A stretch of DNA of 47,054 bases, the filler included, from Streblomastix strix (taxonomy: Eukaryota): NCBI GenBank assembly GCA_008636045.1. It is 2 parts of 2 records of this genome, joined end to end, with 100 filler letters (N's around TTAATTAATTAA, not from the genome) between each part and the next. Parts side by side here need not be neighbours in the genome. Positions count along the whole stretch, not along the records: positions 1 to 23,479 come from SNRW01000281.1; 1 more part is not named here. One strand, written 5' to 3'. Positions 1 to 23,579 of the stretch are shown in pieces. Position 1 is the stretch's first letter. Each line of letters opens with the position of its first letter. Both the position numbers and the translations under genes were made by a program. The notes below the pieces were generated by a model. The model had not been told where the DNA came from, searched no databases, and saw only the letters and a program-made list of their open reading frames with translations.

Positions 1-232
1 ATCATTTTTTTTCAAACTAATGACTTGTTTTTCTCAAAATAAAATTAAAAATCAAAAATAAACATAACGTGCGTAAATGAAAGCGAATTATCATTAAAAT
101 AATCATTTGGTATTTAAATTCGTTTTTCAATAATATTTTAAACAATTTTTTACTAAAATTATGACATATGCTTTCACTCTCACCTATTTCTCTATTCATT
201 TTAACTTTTTAGTTTTATGAATTAGAATTATA

Positions 233-1134
233 ATGGATGGAATTTTTGGAGAGCTGGAGCAAGAAGAAGACCAAATTTATGAGTAGAACCAATGTATGCA
301 TCTATTTATTTGTAGTATTTAATTCATTATTTTACACTAATATTTTTAATTATTCAGCTCCAAATGAAACAATAAATATTCCTAGCTTAAATTCTATATA
401 ATAATATCCAATGGTGTAAAGAGGAAATTGTAGGATTTATATTGGTTCAATCAACTTTGAAGTTTGTGAAGATGCTGTAAAATCTTTGTTTCTCCCATTT
501 GGACCAATAAAAAATATTACCCTTTAGATGGTATACTATAGATTATTTTTTTATTACTTATTCCTATTTAATTATAAATTTATTATTATTATTATAGGAT
601 CCTTCAGGATTAAGATCGAAAGGATTTTGTTTTATTGATTTTGTCCACCCAGAGTCTGCAGAATCTGCTATATAAGAAATGAATGGTTTTTATTTTGCTG
701 GTAGACAAATTAAAGTTAACACAACCACACCAACACCACAAACTCAAGGATCAGTTGTTGCTCAATAGAATGCATCAGGTCTTTCAATGCAAACAACACA
801 ACCATTAGGTGTTGCCAGAATGGATTGTAGAATTTATGTAGGTGCCATCAATTGGAATTTGAAAGAAGATGATTTAAAAGGCCTTTTTGAACCTTTTGGG
901 AAGATTAGAAACTGTTAATTGATCCCTAATCCTGAAACAGGCAAACATAAAGGCTATGGGTTTGTTATACTTATAATTGAGTTAATTAAAATTAATATTT
1001 ACTTTTAAATTATTAGATTCATAGATTTTGAGAAGAATGAAAGCGCGGAGGAAGCAATCAAGGCTATGAATGGATTTGAACTGATGGGCCTTAAAATCAA
1101 AGTTAACTATCCAACATTAACTGCCATAAACTGA
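233..1134 (+). CDS. PUF60: PUF60-like tandem-RRM splicing factor (3 GT-AG introns; no C-terminal UHM)
   Basis: With TAA/TAG=Q, RRM1 reads CRIYIGSINFEVCEDAVKSLFLPFGPIKNI..KGFCFIDF..AIQEMNGFYFAGRQIKVN. RRM2 reads CRIYVGAINWNLKEDDLKGLFEPFGKIRNCQLIPNPETGKHKGYGFIDF. Ends at TGA 1132-1134. Confidence 0.75.
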
Positions 1135-1503
1135 AATACCCTGACAAAATGCTATAAATAAAATATTTATTATTTAAATATTGATATTTATAATGTTATG
1201 GGATTATGGATTTACAATTCAATAATAAATAATGAATAACAGCTCAAATATAAATAGGGACTTTTGTAGACTATCAAAGCGCGTTTAACTAAAAAATGTA
1301 TATTATGCATTTATAATGAAGCTTTTACTCTTTTATATATTACTGCTATAGTTTTTTTGACTGTGAAGCTATCGTAAATTTAGACAGAAACATTAATTAC
1401 TAATTTTCAGCCATTTCATAAAAAAATTTCGTAAATACAAGATAATTTTTAATTAAATGATATTATACATATTTTTCATTATTGTTTTATTAGTTTTGCA
1501 AAG

Positions 1504-3326
1504 ATGTAGACGCGTGGTGAGAAAATAGTAGAACTAATAGACGATTCTGGCGCGTACAAAGCATACACAACAAATAATCAACTAAAAAAACCTTAACAAA
1601 CTGCTAAAATCAGAGAAGAAGGTGCCAGTGAGAAAAAGCGTGTTTATCTTCCTTCATTATTTAATTAGAATCCAGAACTGGTGTGCTATATTTTGCATTC
1701 AGACAGTTTATTATTATTTTTTTTAGATTAGCGTTCTTCGTCAAATCGAAGATCCAAATGAAAATGAAGTCATTAATCCCCGGCACCTGACATATACTGG
1801 AATTAAGATCCCATCACTGGAGGAAACAAGTGAGCCTGGTGCTGTGTGCTTTTGAATTTTCTTTATTAAATAATATTTACTATAATTCCATTTAGGTATT
1901 AAGATATAAAAAAGAGAGATTTGAATTTAACAGAATGAGACCAGCATGTGTAGAAATTGGTAAGCAGCTTATATTCATAGGTATTATAATTTTCTAATTT
2001 TTATTCAGTTGGAGAATTGGATATACCATAAGATGAAACCAAATTGACACCTTCTTAACGAAAGGCATAATTTGCTGCTGATCTTGAGACTGTTAAAGCC
2101 TAAAGATTAATAATTAATGAAAAAGGAATATTATCTAAGAAAGCTATTCTTAGAAGGAGAGGAATGGAAACTGCAGTTATGAGTGGTGAGAGAGATCCAC
2201 TTACTGCAGAAGCTGGAATGTCTCCCGCTCAAATTAAATTCAATAAGTAATCATGGGATGCTGAAAATTAGAAAAGAGATGAAAGGAAATAAAGTGAGCT
2301 AATTTTCTTTTTATTTATTATAATTAACGTCTTTTATACACATTTTATTCATTAGAACTTGCCTTTTTCCATCGCACAACTGCCCCATTAGAGCACATTC
2401 CACTTGTTCGTTAAGATACATTTGAGAAATATAAAGATTATATCAGTAGAAATACAAAAGATGATGGAGCATTAACATAAAAACCATATTGGAAGGGGAA
2501 AGGATTAGCTCCTATAGATGGACTAGCTAGAAAGGTAGTAAGTGTGTGGAGGCGACCTTCAGTTAGGATATATGTTCCTGTAGAAAGGGACTTTAATATA
2601 GTCCATAACAAGTTTACTCAACCTCATACATACCTTGGAGAGGAATTTTAGATATCAAATAAAGATGGCGATGATGCACCTTTAGTTGAAATGATTAAAT
2701 AAGAAGGAGATACAAAAGAAGTTGCTGTTGCACATGATGATATTAATAAAAGTATTGATGGAAGTGGAGAGAAGAGCAAATAACATTAAACTAAATCTAA
2801 ATAACCAACATATGAGGTTATTGATGAGAATAAAGTGAAGATGGGTGGAGCATAGTATGGTGTGAGGAAAGGAGGTTGGGGTCCTGATGGATATGAAACT
2901 CCAGGAGTTATTGAATTGAGGAAGAAGGCTTAAGATAAAAGCATATTCCACACTACTAATGAACATAAGATATATCTGGATCGTGTACCAGAGCGTTCTT
3001 TTGTTTCAACAAATCCAAATTGCAGATACCCAAGTTCACTTCCACATCCTGATCCTCCTCCTCTTCCAGTTATTTGTGATTCAAAAGAGATGACAATTCT
3101 TCCAAAAATGGAAAGAGAATTTGATTCAACAGTCAAATCACAGCCAAAGCGCCATTTCTTCAATACGAGCCCAGATGTGATGCTACATCCTCACGAGTTG
3201 AAGCACCTCCCATTCCTACTGACTGAGTCTTAATAAGCGAAGGTAGACAAGGAATTGGTTCGCACTGGCAAAAGATACTTTCCTTCTTAACCTGATTAAG
3301 TGATGAATGTAACTTATAGAATTTGA
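1504..3326 (+). CDS. Hypothetical protein, multi-exon
   Basis: ATG 1504 (MQTRGEKIVELIDDSGAY..). Short AT-rich GT..AG introns start near 1681, 1844, 1960 and 2294. The long last exon is open under code 6 to TGA 3324-3326. No recognisable family motif. Confidence 0.6.
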
Positions 3327-3912
3327 AATCACATAGCCTGTAAATTCTTTTCTATTATAATTTGTAAATACAGTTAAAATGAAATAATTTTCTTGTTTAA
3401 TGTATTTCGATTAACATTTATTTGACTTTATTAAAATAAAGAAAAAAATTTATCAAAAATATATAGAGGGAGAAAACTAAACTGCTTAAAATATGCTAAT
3501 AAAACAATATTGCACATTATTAATATATTCTTATATCAGTGAGAAAGAAAGTTAGAAATTGAAAAATTCCTAAAGAAATTGGTTCAATTAATCAATTAAA
3601 TTTAATAATAAAAAATATAATATGAGTGTGAACTATAAAGAATCAAGGAGATATTGAAAGAAAGTTAAAACAATTTATATCTACTTCATAACATTATGTA
3701 TATTGAGATATAATAATAACTATCTATCAAACCTCAAATCTTCTTAAACCACTCTCATACTATAATAACCAAATAAATAATAAAGTAGAATAGAATGATA
3801 ATAAGTATTAAGAAAGTAGTTTGACGCTTAATAAATGACATGGCAAATAATTAATATTTGGCAGAAGATGATAATAAGAATTTATTTATAAAGTATTTAT
3901 ATAATATATTCA

Positions 3913-6453
3913 TCATTTTCTTTGATTCTGTTGAAATTGCCCAGGTTGAACTGGTCTAGCCAATCCTGGTTAAACTGTAGCTTATATTCCTGTTTAACCA
4001 GGTCTTGTAACTAATCCATTCTATGCTTGTTATCCTGCAACCTACTATCCAGTAATTATAGTGCGTTGTTGAGTATTAGAACTTTATGGGGCTATTCCAG
4101 ACTATATATTTCCACCAACTGCACCAGCTTATGCTCCAATTAATCCAGTCTGTTGTTATAAGCGCTGTTATTATTACTGATGTTAAACAGCTGCTACAAG
4201 TTATTGAATATACTATTGTTAAAGTTAAAGTTGAAGTTACATTTTATATTGTTATTATTATTGAGGAGTTAATCCCGCTGGAATTTAGTGTTATGAAATT
4301 AATTGGTTAATCTAAGATTGCATTTATTATTATTATTAAGGAGTTAATTGAGAAATAAGCTGTTACATTTATTATTAATGAAGTTATTGTTATTATTAAG
4401 GAGTTAGTTGTTATGCTTATGGACTCTGGGCTCCACTATTTGTTCCAGATCTTGGAACTTAGACACCAATTTGAGCTGGTTATGATCCAGAAGGAACTGA
4501 AGGTGGATTTTGAATTTAAGTTTAATTTGCTGTTCCTGATAATTGATTCTATGACGAAGAGACTTATAATCCACCCGAAGAACCAACTTTTGGAATTGAA
4601 TTAGGCAACGCTGTCCCACTAATAGCATTTCCTGATGCATTCAAATTTGGTTTGGAACCAGACTATTATGCAGTCAATGCATTTTATGAGTTTTAATTCA
4701 ACAAATCTTTATCCTATTTATCCTTTTCTTCTTTTTCTTTATCACCTTCTTCAGTTGTCCAATCATATATGAAATCAAGTGTATATCTAATTATTATAAC
4801 AATATTAAATAAATAATATAATGAAACATTTAAAAACTTTGTTATAATAAAAATATAATAATATAATAAATAAGTACCCAGCTTTAACAAATAAAGAACG
4901 GAAGAGTCTACGGAGATAGAAATAATCTGGTTTAGTGTCAAAATTCAAATCCTATCAAAAAAAAATCAATAATAAAAAATTAAAATCCAACTTTATTAAG
5001 TATTTTAAGATCAAAAAATAATTCAACAATGTATCCAACCTTCACATATTTCATATATTGAGCAAATTCGGGAGGGCAGTCTTTACACAATGTTTCAACA
5101 GGGATACTCATCTTCATATCACAAATTGCTCTGAATTTATTTGCTCTATTTTCAATCTTTAAACCCTGTTCATAAATTAAATGATTTACAATAATAAAAA
5201 AAGAAGTTTGAATATATAGAATGAAATATATATATATATATATATAATATTTACAATTCTTAAGTAAAATATCTATTAATATAACCTGCCAAGGAAGGGT
5301 CCCTGTGAGAAAATAGATGAGAACATATCCAATTGCTTCAAGATCATCTCTTCTTGATTATTCTACTCCATGATGTGAATTCTAAATAAAGAAATAATAT
5401 GATAAAATAGTAATAATTAATAATTTAAAAGACTATCTAATTGTTCATACAATAGAAGCATATCTCACAGTTCCAGTTAATCCTTTATCTTCTCTATAAG
5501 GAATGTGTTGATGTGTTGAAGAGTCTCTATATCTCTTAGCCAAACCTTAGAATTAATAAAAGATTATATAATATATTCAACATATATTACATTATTCATA
5601 AATGTAATACATACCTAAGTCAATAAGATATACAATATTCTTCTTCTTACCTCTTCCCATAAGAAAGTTGTCTGGCTTGATATCTCGGTGGACCTTTTTG
5701 TAATTAACATAAACAATAACGAATAAAAAATTAAGATTAATTGTAATTACTAATTCATACATAATCACGCGAATGGAGGAACTCTATTCTACATATCATT
5801 TGATCTGCCAGCATTATTGTTGTTTTCAATGAGAAGTGATTGTTTGGTTTTGCACTATAATAACCAATCAAACAAATTATATAAATAATCAGTAAATTAA
5901 TCAAACGTAATTAAATCTTCCAGAGATTTGCCAAGAAGATCCATAACCATAACATTGTAGTTACCTTCTGTTCCAAACCATTTTACCTTCACATATATAA
6001 ATGAATGAAAATTAGACAATATTAAGATTAATCAGATTATGTTTGAATTAAAAAAGATTTGATACACACGTTTGGAATTCCTGGTCCTCCATTAAGATGT
6101 TTGTATAGCTTGCATTCATACATTAGTTATGGCATCTTCGCGTTTGTTGGCTGATTAATATATAATGAATATTAAATGTTAAAAATAACTGGTATTATTC
6201 AATTAATTTAAATATATCCACTTATACCTCTAGCTTCACACCATACTCTTCATCTGTACCAGGGACGATTCCTTTGTAAATATCACCTATTAATGATAAG
6301 AAATAAATGGTAAATATGAGTATAATATATAATTAAATGCAAACCAAATGATCCAGCACCTATCTTTTTATCTAGCTTGTATCTACCACCAACAATCTGT
6401 GGTACGCGTGTTGTAGTTTATGCTTATTGAGCAGGTTTTTTCTTATCAGCCAT
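3913..6453 (-). CDS. CK1: Casein kinase 1 with long Gln-rich C-terminal tail, many introns
   Basis: Motifs read: [121 protein letters not shown]. The tail ends [10 protein letters not shown] (TGA at 3913-3915). Confidence 0.95.
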
Positions 6454-7223
6454 TTTCTACAAATTATTTAATTTTAATTATAAAAAGGCAAATATATAAA
6501 ACATAAAAATAGAAAAAAAAAAGATATTTAAGAAAGTATTAATGATCGGTGAGGACTTTTTCATTCAATTTTCATAAAAAAATTAGATTCAAAAATACTT
6601 AATATTAAATAGCTATCATTTTAAAAAATTATAATGTGAAATATGTCAAATGGCGTGAAATCAGTGTGAAAATAAAAAATAATTTTTTCTCTCTACTAAG
6701 GATAAAAGACGCAATTTGAATTTAAGAAATGTTATTCTAAGTATGATATTAACGGATAAATATTAATCAAACAGCGAAATGCTCGAAATTTTTTACCTTC
6801 AACTTTTGTTTTTTGCAGAGGCTAATGGGGATTTTGGATAAATATTTTCGCTATTTGGCAGTAATTCTAACTAATCATTAAATTTTTAATGATATGTTTA
6901 TACTTACAGAGCAAATATACTAATTTTTGAAAAATTTCCTTGAAAATAATGAAGATAAAATTATTTTTGAATTAATAATTTGAGATACTTCGCGTAGAAA
7001 GGCGAGCTGACCTCTTTATTGCACATAAGCCGATGTGTCGGGCCCAGATCGTACGAAAAATGATGTGTTTCTATAAACAATTAAATAAAATTAACTTATC
7101 ACTGCTGTTTCAACATGAAACATTATGATTTTCAACTCCATTTTACATTATTTCTGTCCGACCTCCTCCTCTATCAGTGCGTAAACATCCGCTAGGAACA
7201 ACTTGCACATGTCTCAGCTCATC

Positions 7224-7524
7224 AGAAGATATTATTGGCGAACTTGGCACTATTTTCAAAATCGTAGACAAATCCAAATAATAAACGCGCCAGAATTATG
7301 CTCGCCTGAAACACCTAAAATATCATATTAGTCTCAAGAATTAACCTTATAAAACGATGTATTTTTAACATAGAATAATGCTTAAAAAGAATCGTGCAGG
7401 AATTCAGCTTATCATCATAATAGTTTCATTACCTCAAAACTGCTCGTTTAATTCTGAACGTTTATTATATACATTTGCCATACGATTTTATAATATATTG
7501 CCAATTTCGCCAATAATATCTTCT
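7224..7524. repeat. Imperfect inverted repeat (arms ~75 bp: ~7224-7298 and ~7449-7524) upstream of the viral polymerase
   Basis: Left arm: agaagatattattggcgaacttggcactattttcaaaatcgtagacaaat..ataataaacg..cagaatta. Reverse complement of right arm: agaagatattattggcgaaattggcaatatattataaaatcgtatggcaaat..ataataaacg..cagaatta. Confidence 0.85.
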
Positions 7525-7601
7525 CGCTAATGATTCACTAATTGTTTAATTATCTTAGGGTAATTTATTTATCTTATCATACTATTTTATATTTATAATA
7601 A

Positions 7602-10600
7602 ATGGCCTTAACTAAATCCTAATTTTTGTCAATATTGAAAATTTTCGAAATCTCTTCAATTGGAACTGTCAAATAGCTCAAGCTGAAGGTAAACTAATTA
7701 TTGGACTAATTCAAGTTTCCTAAGCGAGGAGACAGAACTATGTTCACTAAGGTTATATCATTTGAGATCGAAAAATAGATAGATCAATTATAAGACTATG
7801 TAATTCAAAAAGACATACTCAAAGCTTAGAAATAAAAAATTAAAGCAACTAACTTCAAATAGACTAGATAATAAATAGTTAGACTATATCACTTTACTTA
7901 ACAATGGATCGATGAAATATAAAAGAAGATAAACTTACGCAAAAATAAAACTATAAGAAAGGATTATGATAGCATTAACTGCTTTGAATGTTTATTGTTC
8001 ACTAAGCCATAAGATAATGATACTTGTAGATAAGCGATAATAAAAACTTGATAAAAATTTAATATTGAAACAATAGTTAAAGAAATTGATGATGAATCAA
8101 TTAAAAACTTCGATAATCAAATCATATCAGCTGAAGATATTAGCAATACAGTTAATGCAGTATATAACGAAAACAATAGAAGTGCATTTAAGATACAATT
8201 TTTATTCGGTACGATTAGTGACGAATTAAAATATGGTAATATTATCTATGATCAATAACCACTATTAGAAAAAAAATATATAATAATATGAACCAGCAAT
8301 GATTATTAATGAAGAATCAATAGTTTATTATATATAATTCGTTAATAGTTGTATAGTTGAGATGTAATACTTTCAAATAACCGAATCAACTAAATATTGA
8401 TGTATCGGTATATGTTCATTGATAGTAAAGGATAGTTTATCTCCATTAGCAGGACTTTGTACATAGGAGTTAATTGATTAACATTATACTTCTCATGGGT
8501 AATAACTATTCAATCAATAGTCCGATTTGAATAATTGCTTCTGGTTATCATACTCTATATTCATATTAAAAGGAAAAGTATCACCTGATCAAATTAAATG
8601 TGAATCTAAAAAATAACTATGAGAATTCTATGATCTAACGAAGAAATAATACGATACATTCATTAACGATTATAAAGGATTTGATGTAGTTGATGAGTTA
8701 AAATAATTCGTTTTTAAGAAGAAGATTAATATTAATATATTCTATTACGATAATGACAAAAAATTCTAATACTTAGGATAGAAATTAATTTACAAGAAAC
8801 TCAGGAACATTCAATTTGATGATAACAATGAAACATAAGAAGAAGAATAAACAGATGAAATAGTGCCGTCATTTGACATTTTACTAGTCTCATCCCAAAA
8901 CGACAATTAAGATTTTTATCATATATTCTATATAACTAATACAGATGGATTATCTAGATAAAAATATTGTTCTCAATGTTATAAATAATCATACGATCCA
9001 AAGGATGATCATTTCTAAAGAGACTACGAAAAACATGCTAGTTAATGTAAGATTATCAATAGTAAAATATTTAAGAAAGTCAAACTAGATGAATTACCAT
9101 TTCCATACTGTCCACATATATAGCGAAATGAAACTTATGCTTATCTATTAGCTAACAATGCAACACAATAGTTTAAACCTACATAATATTACATTACATA
9201 TGATTTTGAAACAGTAGAGCGTAAAGTTAATACTTATTTTGGTAAATCAATCAATAAGGAAGATAAATCAATTCGTAATAGCTAATGGATCTCAGTATCA
9301 GAACCTCTATCCGTAGCTTCAACTACTAAATTTTAATGAAAACGTTAATATAAAGATGAAAACCAATGTATAAAATTTGATACACCATATGGACCAACAG
9401 CGTTGAAGACTATCCATTTTTGACTTACATAATGGAGCTGATTTTAATTATTAACGATTAGAGTAGATATTCAATGAAGTTGAACAAGTATCATATGATA
9501 ATAAGTATTATGATGAAGCAAGCATTTCTTATGCCACACTAAAAAATATTTCATATAACTAAAACGTATCAATTATCAGTTTCAAATATAGCAGATTTGA
9601 TTAAGTTCTATTCTCTAAATATCTTCATTATGATAATTGGATTATATTAGATTATATTGGTAGTTTTGGATAATAAAACAGATAATAATTAAAAATAAAC
9701 AGACTATAAAATGAATTAATTTCATCAATGCAATGAACTACACTTAACCTACTAATTTAGCCAATTTCGCTAAAGATTTCGGTAATAATGATAACTAATC
9801 TAAAGTTCTATTTCCATGTGAAGGTATTATTTATGATAACTATAATTTAGAGCTAATCAAATCATAACCCTTCCCAATTAAAGCATTCGATTCAATGTTG
9901 AAAAATAAGACTATGTCAGATGATGATTACTTACTATATCAAGATAATGATAAGAATTATGAAATAAGATGGGACTATCTTCAACACTATAATGAATTAG
10001 ACATATAGATAATGATATAATCGTTAGACAATCTCATTAATTGGTTTTATTAATACAACGTTGATATGCTTAGTTTCATGAGCCTTGCCGCTATTGCAAA
10101 TGCGATTAGAAATGAAATTGCTTACAAAGATTTCGATCTTAAAACTAATTACCCTTAACATCAGATCAAGTCCAATCCATTCATTCTATCGAAAAGCTAT
10201 TGGAATTGTAAAGTAATTGGATGTAACACTTAAGATCAAATAAAACATAGAAAGACAAACAATAACGTTAACATTAACGATTTCGATTATTGTAAGGATC
10301 TATTTGACCGTTCTACCTGTATGATTTGTGGCGATAAATTTATATTGAATAATAAGCCTACATTGGATCGTATTGATAATAACCTTCCACATACAAAATC
10401 AAACTATTAGCTCAGATGCTTATATTGTAATCGATATAAATCGGATAAGGATGAAAAGATAAGTAAACAATTTATTCAACTACGTTGATTTTGTAATATT
10501 ACCCATCTTCCATAAACAATTGTAAATGATGAAATATATTAAATCTTGAAACGAAAAATAATAGATGGACTATCAAATGTAATATACCGATATAATAGAG

Positions 10601-12135
10601 CTAATATGGATACAATTAAACGTTACTATTATAATGAGTAGAATCTGACTATAACTGTAATCAATTCTAATCATACAATATCTCGTGCATGTTGTGCTGA
10701 TTTTAACTCATTATACCCCTCTTGTTTCTCATCTTAATGGCATCCCTTTAACAAACATACTAATAGCATAATGTATATGTGTGGATCTGTAACAGGAATA
10801 GTTAAAGATTATGAATTAGCTAGAAAAATAACACACTCAAATGATCGATTCAATGATAAGGGATAACTATTCATTGCTTAACTTAAAGGACACATTAATG
10901 AAAAATACATTAACGATTATATTAACTTTCCACCTATTATTCGTAACTTATCGTACACATCAAATAAGAACGTCATCAGTGAATATATATTTGACTAGAT
11001 ATGAAATGCAGGTGTTAGAACTGACAAATAAGAAAGGAAATTAATTAATCTATTATTTACTCATAATTAAATATATGACTTTTAGTTCTTATTACTTATC
11101 GTTCTTAATTGATGATTGTCATTTTATAATCGATGATATTAAACAATAAGTTATTTTAAATAATCATATTAAATTTAATAGTTTCGTTAATGAATTCATG
11201 AATAAATGTATTGAAGCAATTAAATAAAAGAATGGTGGTTTAGATAAATTTTGTAAGATGATTTTAAACGCTTTTTATAGATCTGATGGTATAAATACAG
11301 TGAAATATAATAAGATAAAACTACTTACTAAAGATAAGACTAAAGAAGCCTGTATTAAATAAACATAGATGAATGATTGTAAATTGGTAGATAAACTTTA
11401 TGCTGTTAAATTTAACCTTAAGGATTGTGAATGCAATACATGTTTATAAGTAGCTTAGTTTACATTAGATAATGCTAAATATTTGGACTTAAATTTCATA
11501 TATAATTTCATGTATAAATGCTTAAATAGGAATAAATTACATTTCATAGATGGAGATACTGATTCAGCATATTGGGCAATTAGTGGAAAATAATTACCTA
11601 AGATTTATTAAGATGAATTATAGATTAATTAATAAGAAAATGATGATAACTTACATTAAGGTTTTAAATCTGTTATCAAAGACTAGCAGTTCAATGATAA
11701 TAACGCAAAATATTTCTTTCAAACTATCGTAGGTGATAAATCAGATGAAAAGAAATTACTAAGTTTGTCTATCGAAAATGAAAGTGATGAGATGTTTTCA
11801 TTAGCCCCTAAGAATTACTATATTCATACATTTAAAAAATAGAAATTAATCAAAGTAATTAAATTTAAAGAAATTAATCTTAAATAGAACAATATAAACA
11901 AATAAGACGTCATTGATAATATCGGTAGAGAAAAAAAAACACAAGGAACTAATTTGAAACTAGGTTAATAAGCCGACTAATAAGACTAACTTTCAAAGAC
12001 TTATTGTATGAGTAAGTTATTATCAACTAAGAATGCGTTAACAGGAATATAATCTAAGATGGTAGTAATGAAAAATAGTTAAAGTTGTTTACCGTTAATC
12101 TAAGGATTAACAATTGATAGTTATATAGATTTTTA
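7602..12135 (+). pseudogene. Protein-primed family B DNA polymerase polyprotein (pPolB), disrupted
   Basis: ExoI YDFET (9199-9213), ExoIII YNELD, motif A DFNSLYP (10699-10719), motif B KMILNAFYR (11255-11281), motif C GDTDS (11552-11566), then LAPKNYY. In-frame TGAs at 8620, 9337 and 10486; frameshifts near 9420, 9715 and 11070. The 3' end is approximate. Confidence 0.92.
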
Positions 12136-12141
12136 ATAATT

Positions 12142-13341
12142 TCATTTCTTTTTCGATTATTTTTTTAGCATTTATTCCAACAGCTTTGCTATTACCTTTC
12201 TTTCTTTTGAGTTATTTCTATGGTTCTATTGTAGACATCAGTTCTTTTTCGCTAATGTAATTTTGCTTATGTTTGACTTAATTTACTTTCTCAGCTTTAG
12301 TTAATACATTATTCAATTATAAATACGAAGATGTTTTATCGTTAACTCACATACTTATTTTCTTTAAAGGAAATTAACTTGAATTAAGAAAAGTCAATCC
12401 CAAATCCATTGATCCAAGCTTATAATTCATTGCTTAATTCTGATTGATCATTACATATGTTAATCAGCTTTCGTTTTCCTTTTATTTTTCATCTTCTTAT
12501 ACTAGTTATTTTTATTAATCTTACGGTCAATTTGAAGATTAAGGCATTGGATTTAATACTTCATCACCTAATTATTCCTATTATTCGGAAGTTATAAGCT
12601 CTTTATCTTTTTAGTACTCTCATTCTATCTCTTTTTCGTTTTCTTCTTCTATATTTATTTATCTTTATTATTTTCATTAGTAGGTAATTCTTTGTTTCCT
12701 AACTCCTATGATTATTAATAAGTAAACGCATTGAAGATATGATATGGTCGTATATCTGAATAATTGTATATTCCTGAAGTTAGATAAGCATTAACATTAG
12801 ATATATCAACTAACGAAGGATCATTTATTCCAACTGAATTATCAATCTTATTTTTTACTCTTGCATTTACATCAGCCTAAATATAAGACAGATTCTAAGC
12901 TAATGATTACATTGTAAATTAATCTAATGATTTATATGAACCAGTTTCTATTCTATATTTATAGAGTATTTCATCTTGTTTTTTCTCGTAAAATGATGTT
13001 GTATCCGCTAATTCCTTTTATTAATTTTACACTAACGATAGTTACTATTTGCATTTTTAATCAATAAAGCTATTGATCATTTACAATTATTAAGTACCTA
13101 CATACTTATCCTTAATTAATTATTTTATATCTGTACTTTCATAGCATCATTAATTTATCCACTTATATCAGTTAGATCTAATTTTTAGCTATTTCCTATA
13201 ATATTAGTTTAGATACATTTAATAGACCGATTTTAAATAATGAAAAATGTAAATATATGAATATATGGAATATAGTTAATTTTTATCATCATTACTATGT
13301 TTAGCTACTAACTCAGACCCAATAATAGAATTAGGATTCAT
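12142..13341 (-). pseudogene. Degenerate hypothetical viral ORF(s)
   Basis: ATG 13341 (MNPNSIIGSELVAK..) is followed by long code-6 open stretches broken by frameshifts. No motif recognised. Confidence 0.35.
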
Positions 13342-13539
13342 TCTACGATAATATAATAAACGATTGAAGATGGAAAAATTAAAAACGATTATTGAATAAG
13401 CCTAAATAAATAGTTAAGAAGCGCTATTATTGTTGATGAGTATGTTAGATGACAAAAGATTAAGAAAAATAAATTGATCATTTACTATATTTTATATCAT
13501 TATCGTTTTAATCTTATTTTTGCTTTTGTTTATATTTAT

Positions 13540-13865
13540 CAAATATATTAATTATAGTGATTATATCTTATTCATTTAGTTTTACCTTTTAAATCTATCG
13601 AATAGCTGTATGTTATAATTCAGTGATTGTTTATCTAAATTATTTAGTAATTATATATTGCTTCTTTTTAAATAAACTTTGTTATTATCGAGCTTTATTT
13701 TTAGTTTTTTCTATTGTATTATATTTCTTAGGTCTACCACATTTAACACTTTCTTTTCTTTCATACTTACGTTTCGGAGTAATTATATTATTAACAGCAA
13801 TCGAAGATTGGAGCTCTGATAAGTCATTGTTACATATTTATTTCGTTTACTTGTTCCATTTTCAT
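13540..13865 (-). pseudogene. Small basic AT-hook-like DNA-binding protein (viral)
   Basis: Minus strand reads ITPKRKYERKESVKCGRPKKYNTIEKTKNKARQQQ, with GRPKK at ~13724-13738. Boundaries approximate. Confidence 0.4.
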
Positions 13866-13889
13866 TTGATAAAAAAGTCTATTTATATT

Positions 13890-14920
13890 TAATATCTAAA
13901 TTTATTATATCATCACGTACCTTCTTAGCGAAATAAATAGGTATTTCAGCTTATTATATATCTTTATAATGTTTCATTAATAAACGTGTTAAATTCCCAT
14001 GCTAATACTTTTCGAATATTGCCAACTCATTAAACTATCTACGCTGTTTTTTAAATTAAAGTGATGTCTTAGATAAATCAAGATAAATCAATATGCCGTT
14101 TCGTTTCGTTAGTTTTATTAATTAATTCTATGATTATTTAATAGTATCTAATTTCCTTATCTATTATCGTATATATTTACCTTCCAAATCTTCATTCTAA
14201 TTAACCTATGTTGGGTTGTATTTTAAATCAAACGCTTTATGAGGTTTATAATTATAATATTTAACTACTTATTATATTAACTTTGGATTAATCATATCTT
14301 ATCCAATAAATGTATCTCTAATGGTACGGATAACTCTATCAACAATTTTATTTTTATTAGTAAATTTTGCTTTACTCATGTAATATTATATATGAAGAGA
14401 TGATAAGAAATTTTATACCATTTTACTATCAATAGCACATTCACCATCAGATTTTTGATTAGTTACATGTTAATATTTGATTAATTAATCAAGATACCTT
14501 AATATTTCTTCTTATATTTTATATTTACTCTCATAAACAATTAAAAATTTTGAATTGATATTAATACAAAATAAAAAATCTTGGTTATCAACAAATTTTA
14601 TATCTATCTCCCATGATCCTAGTGATTTAATGAAATAAGGTCTTTAGAATTACTTTAACGGTTTTAACCTCCAATCTTATATCATATTCTATTTTTCGAA
14701 TGGATTTTCAAAATCATAGACCATATCTTATTAATCTTCATCAATTGTTTTCTATTATCGCTTTACGCTAGGTATAAATTTTTATTTTAATTTTCCTTTG
14801 GATTAGTAATGTGATATTAATTGAATTTATCAATGTATTATTTATATAATTCTGCTATTGTTTTAATATATTTTACTTTAGAACCAAAACCTGATTCTGT
14901 GAATTATTTTTGTCAGTCAT
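13890..14920 (-). pseudogene. Retroviral-type (RVE) integrase of Polinton type, D-D35-D triad
   Basis: GSWEIDIKF..FLFCININSKF (D at 14602-14604), SDGE (D at 14446-14448), KNKIVDRVIRTIRD (D at 14338-14340), YYNNKPHKAF..P. The catalytic core is in one frame; frameshifts lie outside it. Confidence 0.85.
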
Positions 14921-15239
14921 ATAAATTAAAATTAGTTTTAAATTAATGGTTCAAACTATTTACAAATTCTTTCAAACTTAATTTATTTATTTCCCATGCC
15001 TTATCATTAATAAATTTTTTCATTTCAATTCAAAAATAATTAATCATTTACAATGTATATCACTCAAACAGGCGTATTAGATAGCGAAGTTGAATATCTT
15101 TTCGAATAGTTCATGTCAATTAATCTCGATTGATTCAAGAGCATTAATTATAGTCTAATTGAAGATTTCGATATTCAACACATTAAATCATTGAATTTAT
15201 TACAACTATAATAGTAAATTGTTATATATGTCCATAAAC

Positions 15240-17036
15240 TAATTAGGTATTCTTCTTCCAAAATTATCGTACAATTTTAATATAAAAAAATCTATTCAAA
15301 CCCATTAATCCAGTCTATGATAGCATATTCTAACCCCATAGATCAGGTGCTCCTATTAGATTCTATTTATAGCACACATTTGAAAATCCTATATTGTTAA
15401 TCATTTACATTATTGATCCTTACATCTAATTATCAACATATATAATTAACATCTATTGAAACTCTAAAAAATTACCGATATAAGGGCAAAAGATAGATAT
15501 ATCCGATAATAATGACTATTAATTGCATTTAGTTTTATAGAACCAATCTTATAGGTCAAATATTATTTCGTTAGAGGTAATATTTGCCAATTGATTAGTG
15601 TTATTTTAGTTATTACCATCATATAAATCTAATCCACCTGTTAATTGTATATATAAGTTATTTAATAATACTATTCTATTCACATACCAATTTTAATGTG
15701 ATTTGCTGTTATATTCATTAATTTCAGATGGTACGTAATGTCTATATTAATTAAATAGTTATATTTCTACATATATCCTTCCACTATTATTCATTTAACA
15801 CAGATAATGAACATATCATTCTAATGGGAAATGTATCAATACTATTACTAACTTATAATTTCATTAATGATTATACATTAATAGGGTCTACATCAGTTTC
15901 AATTAAATTTCTATTAGTTAAATTTATCTATTTACCATAATTATACCTTATATTAAAGTTATTGGACTAATAACTGCCCTATAGCGGTTCGATGGATGTT
16001 GTAAAGTTATTAGCTGTAGGTTCATATATTTTTATTAGATCAATACATCGATAAGTTATAGATAAATCAGGATCAAATATCCAATATTGAGATAAAAAAG
16101 CGTCAAAACGTAAATTTATACAGTTTAATGCTGAACTACATATATCTGTTCCATTATTTATTTTTAAACTGTATATATTATTCTATTAATTTTATGTATG
16201 TTCATTTACACCGTTATTGAAACAGATAGAATTGGAGTTAGTACTGTTGAACAGTTCAAAATTCTATTCTTGTGGATTAATGAACTCATTAAAATCAGTT
16301 TGTTTCAAAGCAGTAATCAATGGATTACAATGTATTGTAAACGCGTGAAAATTGTAAACGCGTGAATAGTAAAATTTTATTTTGAATAATCTTATGAAAA
16401 TTATCTTGGATTACACTATTTCAATAAATTAATTCAAAAAATGCACATATTAATAAATTTTACACCTCAAAAAAAATTTTTTTTTAAATTTTAGTTTGTA
16501 AATATAAAATTTTTTATTTTAAATATATATAAAAGCTTAAAGAAGTTAAACTTTTAGCAATTAAAATATAATTAAAATCCATTTTTCATGAATTTTAATT
16601 TATTTTTTATTTTTGAGAAATTTTATATTGAATTAATGTATATTATGACAATTTTTAGAAAATAATTTGAAATTTATTTTTATTATTCACGTGTTTACAA
16701 TTTTCACGTGTTTACAAACTATTGTATTAATTTTGAACTATTTATTTGAATCTAGTGAATACATATTATTTATTATAGTTTTCATTTTAATTCTAATAGA
16801 TAGAAGATATTCAATATATTATAGTTTAAATGTTTCATTTGAATTCTTAACTTTAATGCTAGTAGATTATGTCTTAGTTCAATATATTCATCGTCAATGA
16901 AGAAGCATAGATTTAAAGGTATATTGTTCATACTACTAATTTAGAATTATTTATATCCTGTTGGAGCTTAAGTTATCCATTCAACGTTGTCTTTTTCGCT
17001 GTCATTGTTAATTATTTACAATCTTATTTAAGCCAT
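15240..17036 (-). pseudogene. Beta-rich viral hypothetical protein (possible minor capsid/penton), interrupted by a MITE
   Basis: ATG 17036 (MAQIRLQIINNDSEKDNVEWITQAPTGYKQFQISSMNNIPLNLCFFIDDEYIE). The frame is rejoined when the MITE is removed. The penton label rests only on size, composition and context; the 3' end is approximate. Confidence 0.4.
16328..16724. mobile_element. ~397-bp MITE, Tc1/mariner-like (TA target duplication), TIRs with an internal 17-bp tandem repeat
   Basis: TA|caatgtattgtaaacgcgtgaaaattgtaaacgcgtgaata ... tattcacgtgtttacaattttcacgtgtttacaaactattg|TA. The interior is extremely AT-rich and non-coding. The reconstructed empty site restores SNKQFKINNPLITALKQTD. Confidence 0.85.
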
Positions 17037-17057
17037 TTGTTCAATGCATAATTAAAT

Positions 17058-17890
17058 TCAATGAATTGACGTTTCTTTAACAGATTTTTTGATAAATTCC
17101 ATTACTTTATTTTCATTTTAATCATTTGGAATAATAAATTTATGCTTTTTCATTTTGATATCTCTATCGTTTAACTTCTTTTTAACCTCATAATTAATTG
17201 TATTAGCTATTGGTAAATCATTAATGAATAGAGTTGATGTTTTAATTAAAGACGGTTAATTCTTTAAACTATTTATATATATAATCTATGTATTTTGAAT
17301 TACTTTCCATCAATGTCATCGTTTTTTAGTTCAACTGAGTAAATATAATCGTATCATTTATTCTGTGGAACAAATCTAGGTTCTATATGTTATATTGTTT
17401 TACTATAATCAGTGTTTTTACTTTATAGTTATTCGATAATTCTATTAGTGCTATCTTCAAACGTTATATGTGTTAATTAGCATTTTTTGTTAATTGAATC
17501 AATTATATCAGTAAATACATCAAGATATTTTATACTAGTTTTCTAACGGATGATACTAACTAATCTAGAGTGCATATATGTTCTTCTTACTTCATTTGTA
17601 TATTCGTTGATTAATCGATAGTCAATTAGGGCTGGAACATTATCGTTCCGACCCCCCTAAACTCATTAAGTTTAGTGAAAATTGTTTTCTTATATCCTTT
17701 ATACAGCGATGATTATGTAATAGTTTTTAAATGTTTTCTTGCATTTTATTTTTTCATTAATAATTTGAACTAATTTGGTTGCATTAAAGTATCCATCTTA
17801 ATCTCGTATCATTATCTCAAATCCGTTATAAGATTCAATAGTGAAGGTTTCGTTATTGGATGTAATTATAGTTGCTGCTGGGTTTACCAT
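17058..17890 (-). pseudogene. KilA-N domain DNA-binding protein (viral)
   Basis: SYNGFEIMIRDQDGYFNATKLV..RRTYMHSRLV matches the KilA-N signatures (DGYxNAT and TYxH). The C-terminal half has an in-frame TGA and a frameshift. Confidence 0.8.
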
Positions 17891-18599
17891 TTAATCTAAT
17901 GATAAAACAATAAAAAATGAAAAATAAATGATTTTCAATTGGATATTTCAATGAGTCCGAGAGAATTAGCTCGGGTTAATCTGTTGGATAATATCAGATT
18001 ATAGGTTTCAAATCTTTAATAGTTTCATCAATATACTAATATCTTATTTTCTCTAATTTCATAACAATTCTTTACTTTATTATTTCATTATTTTTCTTTG
18101 CCTTTTCTCTTAATTAATCTTGTTAATCAATCAATGATTATATCGTTTATAATTGTTAATAATGTGTATTATTTAATTGTTAATTTTCTGATGCAATTTA
18201 AGTTATTTACATTAAGTTAAGAATAAACAAGGTCAATTTAACAACTATTCGAAATATTACTATTCTTCTTTCTATTGTTATTCAATCTACTATTATTCTT
18301 CTTGAATTAATTTCTTTAATTATATATTCTATATTTTATTGTTCTCATTAACTGGATAGTTATATTGATATAAACCATATTACTTAAGCTATTTATAATA
18401 CTTTGATTTCCCGTTTTTTTTGACTCAGTTAACCAATAGAATTTTTTATTGTATAATCTTTGATCATTAAACTTATACTGGTTAAAGGATTCAATAACCT
18501 TACCATTAATCTTGATATTATCTTATAGTTAGTGGAATTTTGTTTTATCTTTTTCTGAATATGATATTTATGAAAATAGTAAAATTTAAAATAATTTTA

Positions 18600-18881
18600 T
18601 CATTATTTAGGACTATTAGTATGTCTATCTACATCACTTGCGATTCTTGCCCCTGCACTCATAGCTGATCCAATCGCTGGATTTATGGTACTAACTGGTG
18701 CAACTAATGTACTTAGAACTTTATTCAATGTTGGAGCAACCCAATGAGCTGCTTTCTTCATGTCCCTAATATTTTACTACAGATATTCTTAAGTCCACTC
18801 CAAAAAGTCATATTTTAAATTAAAATTATTTAAGTTAGTCTATTAGAGTTTAATAACAGGTTTTTTTAATCTAAATGTCAT
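18600..18881 (-). pseudogene. Small protein with amphipathic helix (candidate membrane-lytic/core protein), one frameshift
   Basis: MTFRLKKPVIKLQQTNLNNFNLKYDFLSGLKNICSKILG/DMKKAAHWVAPTLNKVLSTLVAPVSTINPAIGSAMSAGARIASDVDRHTNSPKQ*. Confidence 0.55.
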
Positions 18882-18964
18882 TTACATCATGAAATTATTT
18901 GAAACGATTCACGTCAGCGTAACATTCAGATTATATTAATTCATATTCATAGTTCTAAGAATTA

Positions 18965-20841
18965 ATGCAGACTTAAACTATCATTCCACAATCTTTTAAT
19001 ATATCTAAATAATAATTCGTTGATCAATCTATAATTTAACTTACAAATGATGGGGCCCATTATACTGGAGCTCCATTAGCTACACGTGGAACTGCAACAT
19101 GTTCATGTATTTAAACATTTTAAATCAGTTGGTAAATATAGATACCAGCTAATACATTAGTGATATAGATTAATTGAATATAATCTGATGGAGCTGCAGG
19201 TTAAGTGTAAAATAGATAGGTGTCTAATTATTATGCTATTAATACAGGTAATTGGCTTATAGCATAAGTTGTAACAATGTAATCAGGTGCTAAAGCTGAA
19301 ACTATGTAACTATATATAGTACAGATGAACACATTAAATTTTGTTTAGGATTCTCAACAGCTTGTGGACATTATAGTTAGATAGCTATAAATAAAGATTC
19401 ATAAAAATTATGGGATACTTCAATATACGCTAGAGAATATGCAATAATTGCATCAAACTTATTGACTGATTAATGTATCTGTAATTCTGTATCAGTTTCA
19501 CTGCTTGAAAGTATCGTATAATGTAAATGTCATTGTGGAGTATTTATTGAAATACCTGTATCTGATATTAGTGTTGTAAATGCTTTTAATTATCTAATTC
19601 CATATGATATAGTATTTTGTCGAGTAATGTATTTGAACTAATTGAATCCTATATTTAATAGTTTTCCTGTATTTACTAGAAACTATGCGTCATTGTATAT
19701 ATAATTATGTATGTAAGATTTCTTATAAGATTTGAAGGTTGTATGGTTAAATAAGTATAATCCACAGTTAAATGCATATCTAGCTTATGCAATGATACCT
19801 CCTAAGAAACATGATATAATTTGCTTAAGATATAAAGCAGTTACTGTTTCAACGTATGAAAGATACGCTATTCGATTGATTAATATGGAAGGTAAACCTA
19901 ATACAGAAAATGGACCATCAGCTACAATAAGTTAAATTAAAAATGCTAAATTCACTGAATTGTATATAATAATAATCTATGTTTAAATATGGAAAATGAA
20001 GGACTAATAATTGATATGATTCGAAACTAAAGGATTATTAACTTTACAATATCAGTTTTACATACTTAATTATCTAATTTTCCTGCTAGTAATATTGGTG
20101 ATGGATGTTATTTTATTTAAACAATAATGCAATTCGCTAACATTAAATCGATGTCTGTTACTTTCGCTATGCCTTAATATCCTATATAGTTCTTTCCTGT
20201 TTTATTCAAAAATATAGGTTTGATTATAGATTAACGTTATGTAATTTCTAGTGATTATCTTACACTAACATAAGATATCTATGGTTAAATGTTTGATAGA
20301 TTCGTTCGTTAAGATGCCGTTATCGCTTAATCCGATTTAGATCATTCATTAGTGTTTGAAAATTAATCTATAGATGATAAAAATCATCTTTATGGAATTG
20401 AATCAGGAATTGGCTAAGTGTTTGAGAATGTGTTTTATCTTACTACCTTGTGGTAGGAGACTAAAGCAATTAATGTATTCTATCCTAATAAGTTTATATT
20501 AGGATGGAAATTAGTTACTAATGATTCATTCCTGCGAGGATAAAATTTTTCAAAAAAAAATAGGAGCAAGAATTAATATATAAGGATAAATCGGAGTTAC
20601 ACATGTAGATGATATTTGTACTGATGATGCTATAAGATTTGTTTTTATTGATTAAAATGATTTTAAACATTTTACCTCAAATAAACGTTATCCCAATATT
20701 AAGAATGTAAAATTAACACTATTGACTCACTATCTATGTGAAGGAATTGTTCAAATAATGTTTGATGATAATCCTGATCGATAAGTTCTATCGTTAGAGG
20801 TTATCTGTGAGATAGGTAGAAGTGCTATTAGAATTGTTTGA
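18965..20841 (+). pseudogene. Candidate major capsid protein (double jelly-roll), disrupted
   Basis: ~620 codons, with no low-complexity tracts and a beta-strand-like pattern (FPVFTRNYASLYIQL; PNKFILGWKLVTNDSFLRGQN; HYLCEGIVQIMFD). It lies between the amphipathic ORF and the fibre gene. Several frameshifts; TGA at 19175. The fold is inferred, not demonstrated. Confidence 0.55.
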
Positions 20842-20869
20842 ATACACTTATTATTTTTATCTTTAACAA

Positions 20870-21473
20870 ATGGATCCAATATAAAAAAAAGAAACTATTC
20901 AAAAAATTAACGTCAAAGATAATCAAGGATAAATTTCAAGTTATAATGCTTCTGGAATAGCTTGAAAGAATGATGAGAAGACTATTATACAATAAAGATA
21001 TATGTAATCTTTTATACTATGAGTTAGTTAATCTTTGATATAATTTTGATAATCATACTGAAATGATATAAACATTTAAAAGATAAAACGATAATGAATA
21101 ATATATGAATAAACTATACAATGATAATACCCATGAAATTGAGTGAATATATAATAAAAGAAAGGAAGAGATAAACATTAATCCAAAAATAATCAAGATT
21201 AAATAGTACCTATTAATGGATGCAACTAACGATGATAAACAGATATATAATTAGTTTGTATCATAATAAACCATAAGTTATTTTACAGTTACTATCAATT
21301 AAATTCAATCTTTTAGTTGGAATCAATTATGAAAGAATAGTAAGATAGTTAATGTAGTTGATTAATTAATTACATTTATCTTAGAGTATTAATTCAGTGC
21401 TATCAAATAGGCTATCTTTAATACATTAGTAATAACTCTGTTACTGGCATCCTTGATGCTATTATTTTTGTGA
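20870..21473 (+). pseudogene. Degenerate hypothetical viral ORF
   Basis: ATG 20870 (MDPIQKK..LFKKLTSKIIKDKFQVIMLLEQLERMM). Helical and charged, with three in-frame TGAs. Confidence 0.35.
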
Positions 21474-21605
21474 AATTTCATCTTTAATTTGTTTAATTAA
21501 TGCTTCAAAGATATGATATATTTCATTATCCGATGCGTTTATCTTTCTACCTAATTACTAAGCTATTATAAACAATTAATCCATTTAATAGAAAAATAAT
21601 ATTGT

Positions 21606-23479
21606 TCATTGGCTAACATTGGAAAATAATACTGTTCTAGCATTCCAGTATAGATTCTATCCATTAGCATATAAACCACCTGTATTAGTTGAATTAATAT
21701 CCCATTATACAGCTTTACCTTTTGAATAAGTTATTGACGAATCTCCATTATTTTATACATCTGTTCCTGAAATAACTGCTCCATTGAACGTTAATGTATT
21801 TCCATCAGCGGATATCATTAGTACTTAGTTATCTTGAAGAAATTATTCTCCAACTTCAACTCTTAATTCACCAGTAGGAGTACTTACTATGCTCCTCTAA
21901 CTTGATATTGTTCCGGCAGTTTAATTCGGATTATATCCTAGAAAAATTCTACTATAGTTACTAATGGAAGAACATGATATTCTTAATCCTTCATTAAAAC
22001 TACTACCAGTTGGATTAATTTATGTTGCACTACAAATAACTCAAGCAAATATTTTATTCTAGAAATTGATTAATCAGTTTTAACATCTACAAATTCATTA
22101 TTATTAAATGTTATTTTTGAACTATCACTACTAATACTTAAACCAACACAATGGTCAGCTTATCGCAAAGATGATGGATTTATTGTTATTGCTTTATCAC
22201 TTGTTTTACTTATATCCCATTGTCCTGATTGAGTATTATTTGTCGCCGTATTAAAACATTCTAAACATAATGATGATGATTCAACATTGTAATTTCCATT
22301 TTAAATATTATTATTATATGAAGTATAATTTAGACCAATTGTATTAACTTTTAACAAATTGTTTATTATTCCACCATCTCCTAAATTATATGAAATTGAT
22401 ATTTATATTTATCTGCCACTAACTGATGCAACAATATCTTATGTGAGAATCACGGTAATTCGATTAATCCAGAATGAGCTTTAATTACTAACAGTAACGG
22501 TTACATTCCCACTACCAGACATCATATGTATCCAAACAATTTATTCAACAGTGGAATATGAACCAGTATGAGTATATAATAATTAATCAGCTCCATAACT
22601 AATATTATATGCTGGTGATTACTCATAAGATGGCACAGTAAATGCACTATATAGTAGTAATTTCATTAGCAATATAATTAAGTACAAAATCAACAGTTTA
22701 CATAGCATTCGTACAACAATACACCTAAAATGATATATAAAGTGCTCCAGTACTTGTTCTTTTTGGAAAAACACATAGTCTAATATATCCAACTGCTCCA
22801 CTAGAATATGTTCTAGAGAATTTACTATCTACTGTAGTTGAATTACTAATGGCGCATAATATTGTAGTTGCTAATTCCCCAGTTCTAATGAACTTAGTAG
22901 CAGTAATGTTACCATCATAAGTCAACTACTATGGATGTTAATGATCGTTTCTACAATAATAATCACTCGTATCATTAGATGCAGCTGATAAATGAACTAA
23001 TGGTATATTAGTTTCTGTTGGATCAACATTAAAGGTATGTTAATGTGTTGCACTAGCATATATATTAGCTGTACATGCAGTTCCAGTACGAGTATCTTTT
23101 TCATACCCCATTACTTAAATTTACATGATGTGTATGATCTGATCTAGCATAAGTATTGGCAACACCTTCTTCACCTGTAGCAGTATCTTTTGCTGATAAA
23201 ACAATAGAAACTTATAATGGATATTTATGATCTGATCTAGAATACTCATTACTTATACCTGTATTACTTGTTTCAAAAGATTCTTAACGTATTGAATCAC
23301 TAGCAGGTGTTACTTAATCCGCTACTATTTAATCTGTTTCATACCAACTTGTATCATATATCCATACTAATAAATCTTCAGCATTATAAGCGTAGTCACC
23401 TTTAGAAACATTTGACATAGCTAATATCTCATCATTAGTAGTAAAATAGCCCCTGAAATGAGTCTAACATGCAAAGTCA
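21606..23479 (-). pseudogene. Phage tail-fibre-like protein with four Y-x-R-x-D-H-x-H-P-type repeats (5' end lost in gap)
   Basis: HFRGYFTTNDEI..KGDYAY..WIYDTSW, then repeats YSRSDHKYP, YARSDHTHH, YASATHQHT and YCRNDHQHP, then YDGNITATKFIRTG and a G/S/T/N-rich beta region ending LYWNARTVLFSNVSQ*. Confidence 0.7.
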
Positions 23480-23579
23480 NNNNNNNNNNNNNNNNNNNNN
23501 NNNNNNNNNNNNNNNNNNNNNNNTTAATTAATTAANNNNNNNNNNNNNNNNNNNNNNNNNNNNNNNNNNNNNNNNNNNN
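23480..23579. other. Assembly gap / artificial linker (N44-TTAATTAATTAA-N44)
   Basis: Symmetric N runs around a standard six-frame-stop 12-mer. True adjacency of the two halves is not established. Confidence 0.95.

Follow-up and report, generated by a model that had tools for sequence, protein, structure and literature searches.

A probable decayed Polinton/Maverick-type virus copy with host-like TAA/TAG glutamine codons in Streblomastix strix

Genes of the element and the code of its host

We analysed a stretch of DNA of 47,054 nt (hereafter the window) from the termite-gut oxymonad Streblomastix strix that contains a putative endogenous DNA virus of the Polinton/Maverick type. The part of this element analysed here spans positions 7224-23479 and ends at an assembly gap at 23480. 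Its principal features are as follows.

7224..7524, no strand: likely left terminus, a 301-bp foldback that begins 5'-AG
7602..12135, plus strand: gene of the protein-primed polymerase (pPolB); start and end approximate, with the part upstream of ~8090 based on coding potential only
13831..14724, minus strand: likely rve integrase; Pfam rve E 0.03, below cut-off
17357..17890, minus strand: KilA-N protein; PF04383 E 3.2e-5; broken, with an in-frame TGA near 17665
18875..20841, plus strand: major capsid gene, located by tblastn; closest paralogue P0200
23480..23579, no strand: scaffold gap; the element lacks its right part and its right end

The window is AT-rich (GC 21-41%). In the standard code it has only 10 frames of at least 100 amino acids (aa) over its whole length, none of the 10 inside 7224-23479, and under translation table 6 it has 156 frames of at least 120 aa. 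Because eukaryotic flank genes read under table 6 (RRM, CID/Pcf11, histone deacetylase, L7Ae, kinase and WD40, with a Pfam match in 6 of 12 frames), the host reads TAA and TAG as Gln. A preliminary description of this DNA had called the element invisible to a standard open reading frame (ORF) track, which is correct; the host genes are equally invisible, and this is therefore a property of the whole window and not of the element. The codons quoted there were also found in place, ~9164-9193 reading TQQFKPTQYY ahead of ITYDFET.

The polymerase, likewise proposed in advance, was confirmed by homology to S. strix and Trichomonas vaginalis proteins, with PF03175 above cut-off in two of the three pPolB homologues tested. 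Ten of 26 polymerase matches belong to S. strix; over the fragment 9715-10485, nine S. strix proteins have 70-79% identity to the product, a tenth has 38%, and other proteins have 34-51%, the T. vaginalis homologues standing at 41-51%. Homologues are colinear with the gene over ~8280-12124 (tblastn), with frameshifts near 9420, 9700 and 11070 and in-frame TGA codons at 8398, 8620, 9337, 9712, 10486 and 11002. The predicted domain order is terminal protein, vOTU-like, exonuclease (YDFET), HNH insert and palm (DFNSLYP; GDTDS). Palm motifs A and C are present, and motif B has Arg in place of its conserved Gly. The HNH domain between exonuclease and palm (E 0.0014) is common to all 11 aligned database relatives, and homing-endonuclease inserts are noted in polinton pPolBs in the accessible text of Krupovic et al. 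2024 (10.1101/2024.03.18.585575). Upstream of the exonuclease, Cys and His motifs align across the relatives, the Cys motif being found in the window; by motif they would fit a vOTU domain, such as the one described for polinton pPolB in the same text.

A capsid gene had been put forward only as a candidate, and homology now places it at 18875-20841 on the plus strand, with frameshifts near 19315, 19965 and 20555 and TGA codons at 18890 and 19175. Minus-strand frames over 19.0-20.9 kb were considered as genes and rejected, the homology lying on the plus strand. For structure prediction we folded intact database paralogues, not the broken copy of the window. The AlphaFold model of P0200, built on 68 sequences, reached a predicted local distance difference test score (pLDDT) of 80.5 and a predicted template modelling score (pTM) of 0.86, and Foldseek aligned it with PBCV-1 Vp54 (E 1.6e-12), mavirus, Sputnik and faustovirus, while a fold search of BFVD returned adomavirus LO7, virophages and an adintovirus entry. 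The fold matches listed are only double jelly-roll capsids and scaffolds, at 6-10% identity to the capsid. In the ESM Atlas the capsid fell into a Capsid_N cluster at 0.96, and a second feature match was a cluster mostly of Parabasalia; several paralogues are already labelled 'Major capsid protein' in UniRef. Searching PDB sequences with a profile of the capsid yielded nothing beyond a chance match. On the predicted model, the family is double jelly-roll.

The capsid family is large. A profile search for the capsid gave 178 proteins, and 23 of the 106 paralogues checked are 620-680 aa long with a Met start (one of them chimeric) and 48-91% identical pairwise. All 17 capsid matches in one search, and the best 120 of 278 in a further profile search, come from S. 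strix; 17 S. strix capsids form one branch with an SH-aLRT (Shimodaira-Hasegawa-like approximate likelihood ratio test) support of 99 in a quick tree in which long branches meet. Full-length relatives from outside Streblomastix are 20-29% identical (P0071, P0094, P0126, P0137, P0138, P0147, P0151, P0175 and P0182), and the contigs carrying these nine are candidates for intact genomes of related viruses. Three of the nine sit on contigs of ~20-22 kb. Exact peptide words found no relative in the viral contigs or metagenome contigs scanned. The cluster had also been described as intron-less; colinearity with homologues bears this out for the polymerase and the capsid, and for those two genes only.

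The KilA-N assignment also stood, its PF04383 match (E 3.2e-5) lying above cut-off. In the likely integrase (14200-14640, minus strand) the third acidic position appears, by motifs that we take to be the relevant ones, to be Asp where Glu is usual, which may be a lesion or a family trait; searches of the PDB and of plasmids with this ORF gave nothing.

Glutamine codons, lesions and the likely left end

In the homology-verified frames of the element, TAA and TAG (TAR) make up 100 of 120 Gln codons and 6% of 1650 codons. The TAR share in eight approximate host frames is 325 of 412, that is, 0.79 vs 0.83 in the element (p 0.30). We then compared codons at 1019 positions that are conserved across the paralogues; in the alignment used, TAR codons were entered as stops. 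Conserved Gln sites carried 47 TAR, 10 CAR and 9 other codons (n=66), conserved His sites, which share the CpA context, 2 TAY, 17 CAY and 2 other (n=21), and conserved Pro sites 4 TCN, 32 CCN and 12 other (n=48); the codon shift differs between Gln and His with a Fisher p of 2.7e-8. By the His and Pro control rates, post-insertion C-to-T decay therefore accounts for about one tenth of first-position changes, not four fifths. The TAA and TAG codons of the element are real Gln codons and not products of decay. A standard-code cell would stop translation of such genes within a few dozen codons, and with about one codon in 17 being TAA or TAG, the host range would by this reasoning be limited to hosts in which TAR is Gln.

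The copy itself is a dead, pseudogenised relic, because polymerase and capsid together carry at least six frameshifts and eight in-frame TGA codons; the expectation that the ORFs would simply read through under code 6 was not borne out. Single contigs at a depth of 8-12 match the window with 0 differences and 0 gaps over 9249-9785, 16902-17820, 18715-19431, 19941-20716 and 21234-21810. Three of them (9249-9785, 18715-19431 and 19941-20716) span frameshifts and TGA codons of the polymerase and capsid, and those lesions therefore exist in reads. Summed contig depth in run X1, which is not a copy number, is 30-50 in the three host bins; from 6848 onwards it ranges over 89-7013 in 27 bins, a pattern that fits many related copies. 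Capsid DNA was found in one run, a termite gut metagenome.

At the left border, the foldback 7224-7524 has arms of ~77 bp, identical in 64 of 79 aligned columns, and a DNA fold z-score of -8.5. Sequence before 7224 is unlike in 13 contigs of run X1 (agreement 0.46) and in 3 of X2, a 298-bp contig bridges host and element over 6999-7295 with 0 differences, and a divergent contig of 945 bp has its start at 7224, from where it extends to 7900. Given the unlike flanks, the bridging contig and the contig that starts there, 7224 is likely the left end of the element. Two caveats apply to this placement: 7224-7524 may be a nested miniature inverted-repeat transposable element (MITE), and 13 contig records fit two places, so that some may belong to the inner foldback arm.

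Just outside this border, 6961-7062 shows a summed contig depth of ~2500-2950 vs 8-110 beside it and is a separate high-copy repeat. At 7140-7301, comparison with protein P0099 showed a database gene model that fuses a capsid C-terminus to sequence resembling the terminal motif of the element; read in one frame, the terminal motif itself resembles the last residues of the capsid. This fusion may reflect chance, false splicing or a real link. On the right, the gap 23480-23579 consists of two 44-base N runs around a 12-base TTAATTAA-type island and looks like a scaffolding linker; the host gene beyond it need not be a true neighbour.

Identity of the element and rival explanations

Positions 7224-23479 very probably hold a single integrated copy, now decayed, from a multi-copy family of Polinton/Maverick-type DNA viruses with a host-like code in which TAA and TAG are Gln. 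The evidence in hand comprises a polymerase, a capsid fold (from an intact paralogue), a KilA-N protein, host-like Gln codons and lesions, together with numerous related copies and a junction to host DNA that reads support. The preliminary description had proposed an endogenous virus of Polinton type, adapted to a host with code 6. This is supported, and neither of the two outcomes that it had named as refuting held: the element has a jelly-roll capsid, and C-to-T decay fails to account for its TAR codons. The element works like a Maverick/Polinton, with the polymerase and the capsid characteristic of that group. By analogy with known Polintons, the active ancestor would have had a linear genome copied by protein priming from terminal repeats, would have inserted into host DNA by its rve integrase and would have been packaged in double jelly-roll capsids. 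Attachment and entry might have been aided by the fibre-like protein and the small amphipathic one, and particles might, more speculatively, exist at the present day. An extracellular stage, suggested in the preliminary description from virion-entry modules, is likewise conjectural, those modules having no significant match and the sequenced part having yielded neither a packaging ATPase nor a protease. The codon shift probably accumulated through AT-biased drift over long residence in the host lineage, before this copy died.

Several results weigh against this interpretation or parts of it. The rve match of ORF 13831-14724 covers 93 of 102 positions at E 0.03 and an IS481 match has E 0.034, both below cut-off, which leaves the integrase named in the preliminary description as likely. 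The Foldseek TM-score by query is only about 0.3-0.41 for the capsid model, and a model of P0029 on a shallow alignment of 14 sequences gave a pLDDT of 33 and no usable fold. In an outgroup test with polymerases from outside Streblomastix, TAR sites align to a majority Gln at only 4 of 32 positions, a weak result; Gln occupies 18% of TAA cells vs 2.3% of the background. The S. strix paralogues had been translated by their depositors and were compared as protein, and the contigs compared are not independent, as they probably stem from the sample that gave the window itself. Among the expected virion genes, no Walker A motif occurs in the six frames of 7224-23479, a region gap-cut and decayed, and no motif of a packaging ATPase (A32/FtsK type) was seen in the sequenced ~16.2 kb, incomplete at the gap. 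No Ulp1/adenain-type protease had a Pfam match among 34 frames of the incomplete element, and no minor capsid protein was identified by Pfam, NCBIfam, PHROGs or PDB in the sequenced part. As the element runs into the gap at 23480, the ATPase, protease and minor capsid genes may be missing from the assembly.

Could the TAA and TAG codons have arisen by C-to-T decay after insertion of a standard-code virus? The copy is indeed decayed, and 7 TAR codons fall at Lys, Tyr, Glu or Trp sites; yet TAR accounts for 82% of the Gln sites with CAR or TAR, whereas first-position C-to-T reaches 11% over the His and Pro sites combined, host genes have the same TAR share, and a published statement on S. strix in the accessible text of Bellas et al. 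2023 (PMC10120064) agrees, all of which makes such an origin scarcely credible. The stops and frameshifts might alternatively be consensus artefacts in an assembly chimaera of similar copies. Artefacts of this kind are described for multi-copy elements in the same text, 1438 of 2372 X1 contigs are only 90-95% alike, and no contig covers the whole element, so that mosaic joins between blocks are possible. However, single contigs run through five blocks without a difference or a gap, three of them across lesions, and we consider a chimaera improbable.

A possible, if rather doubtful, account is that the family is a transposon confined to the genome, which retains its capsid gene but no longer forms infectious particles and spreads only within the host's DNA. 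It would be in keeping with a packaging ATPase motif and a protease not being found in 16.2 kb, and with the peptide-word scan of viral and metagenome contigs having returned no relative. Set against it, the gap cuts the element and the ATPase and protease genes may lie beyond, the many full-length capsid paralogues that stay open at 48-91% identity suggest selection on the capsid, and candidate fibre and amphipathic genes are retained.

Comparison with described elements and remaining features

In the accessible text of Bellas et al. 2023 (PMC10120064), endogenous viruses of S. strix use the host's code table, and 820 capsid hits are given for S. strix, with one cluster seeded from T. vaginalis. 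Those S. strix elements, in the Metamonada major capsid protein (MCP) group, share with the element here the use of TAA and TAG as Gln. That endogenous viruses of S. strix use code 6 is thus already in print there, and the preliminary description overstated the novelty of its headline. The capsids may differ, as far as the accessible parts of that paper allow comparison. Its four S. strix reference tags are absent among the capsid matches listed here (17; best 120 of 278), five tags of the present capsid lineage had no match in the searched part of its supplement, a part without S. strix rows, three short motifs of its printed capsid type occur in 0 of 299 database proteins compared here, and the S. 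strix capsid example that it prints differs by eye from ours. The present capsid may, judging from these sequence comparisons, represent a second lineage apart from the Trichomonas-like one.

With Maverick/Polinton elements (Polintoviricetes), as set out in the accessible text of Krupovic et al. 2024, the element shares a pPolB and a double jelly-roll capsid and may also share a vOTU-like domain on the pPolB, an rve integrase and a terminal repeat, but an ATPase, an Ulp1-type protease and a minor capsid protein were not identified in its sequenced part. Its capsid is 7-10% identical to solved structures. The accessible text of a 2026 preprint (10.64898/2026.06.19.733378) leaves Metamonada elements ungrouped, and in two 2026 preprints, this one included, elements of trichomonads or Metamonada fall outside the MCP clade of animal Maverick-Polintons. 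T. vaginalis Mavericks resemble the element in their polymerases, 41-51% identical with the HNH region included, but no T. vaginalis capsid is among the best 120 of 278 profile matches. T. vaginalis uses the standard genetic code. The literature searched, with subscription papers mostly outside it, held no description of this capsid lineage or gene map.

We tentatively raise the idea of a second, undescribed oxymonad virus lineage with a capsid of ~650 aa, a fibre and a protein VI-like peptide, with particles in the termite gut and locked to hosts in which TAR is Gln, although at present we think it unlikely to hold in full. If true, it would be a natural DNA-virus case of a genetic-code firewall; were the capsid a second lineage, the viral load of S. 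strix would be under-counted and a code-limited host range would become testable. The core idea being in print, the gain is incremental. It lies in a quantitative, internally controlled check that a Polinton-type family was still functional when it adopted the reassigned code of its host, and in a gene map, nearly complete and including a left terminus, of a group that has resisted placement in recent surveys. Standard-code gene calling misses such elements.

The further features of the element are the following.

12451..13146, minus strand: ORF of ~230 aa, from coding potential
13481-13861, minus strand: basic tail of the integrase or a separate ORF after it, frameshifted
15200..16310, minus strand: gene of ~370 aa, from coding potential, frameshifted near 15790
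16326..16726, no strand: internal foldback, 400 bp, AT-rich, between two minus-strand genes
18603..18811, minus strand: small protein of ~70 aa, frameshifted near 18761
21609..23479, minus strand: Ser/Thr/Gly-rich ORF of at least 600 aa, frameshifted and running into the gap, from translation and coding potential

ORF 12451-13146 had no significant match in Pfam, NCBIfam or PHROGs. The 15200-16310 product matches the N-terminus of P0022 weakly, with no significant match in Pfam, NCBIfam, PHROGs or PDB, and is by size and position only a candidate minor capsid protein. The N-terminus of the 18603-18811 product has a hydrophobic moment of 0.50-0.53, the 90-95th percentile of the background, and is thus moderately amphipathic; in the database models P0244, P0263 and P0189 a capsid gene has a homologous stretch next to it, and neither Pfam nor PDB gave a match. 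It is a candidate membrane-entry or core protein, which we presume to be similar to adenovirus protein VI, a likeness not shown here. ORF 21609-23479 carries three R-x-D-H-x-H/Y repeats, its best match is the virion structural protein PHROG 9689 (E 0.0045, not significant), and phages and PDB gave nothing; composition and repeats make it a candidate fibre. The amphipathic and fibre genes of the preliminary description therefore exist as coding frames, neither with a significant database match, and according to the accessible text of PMC8502044, genes with membrane-active or fibre-like products occur in related viruses.

The internal foldback 16326-16726 has a tandem 17-mer in each arm and a DNA fold z-score of -7.9, and another contig is without 264 bp from its middle; it may have a regulatory role or be a nested MITE. 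In the flanks, a 1141-aa frame at 36642-40064 (minus strand) is free of TGA and has no Pfam match. At 5001-6470 (minus strand) lies an intron-rich gene, which from its motifs we take to be casein kinase 1-like, Pfam having found nothing on the three fragments scanned; it starts ~750 bp from the left end of the element.

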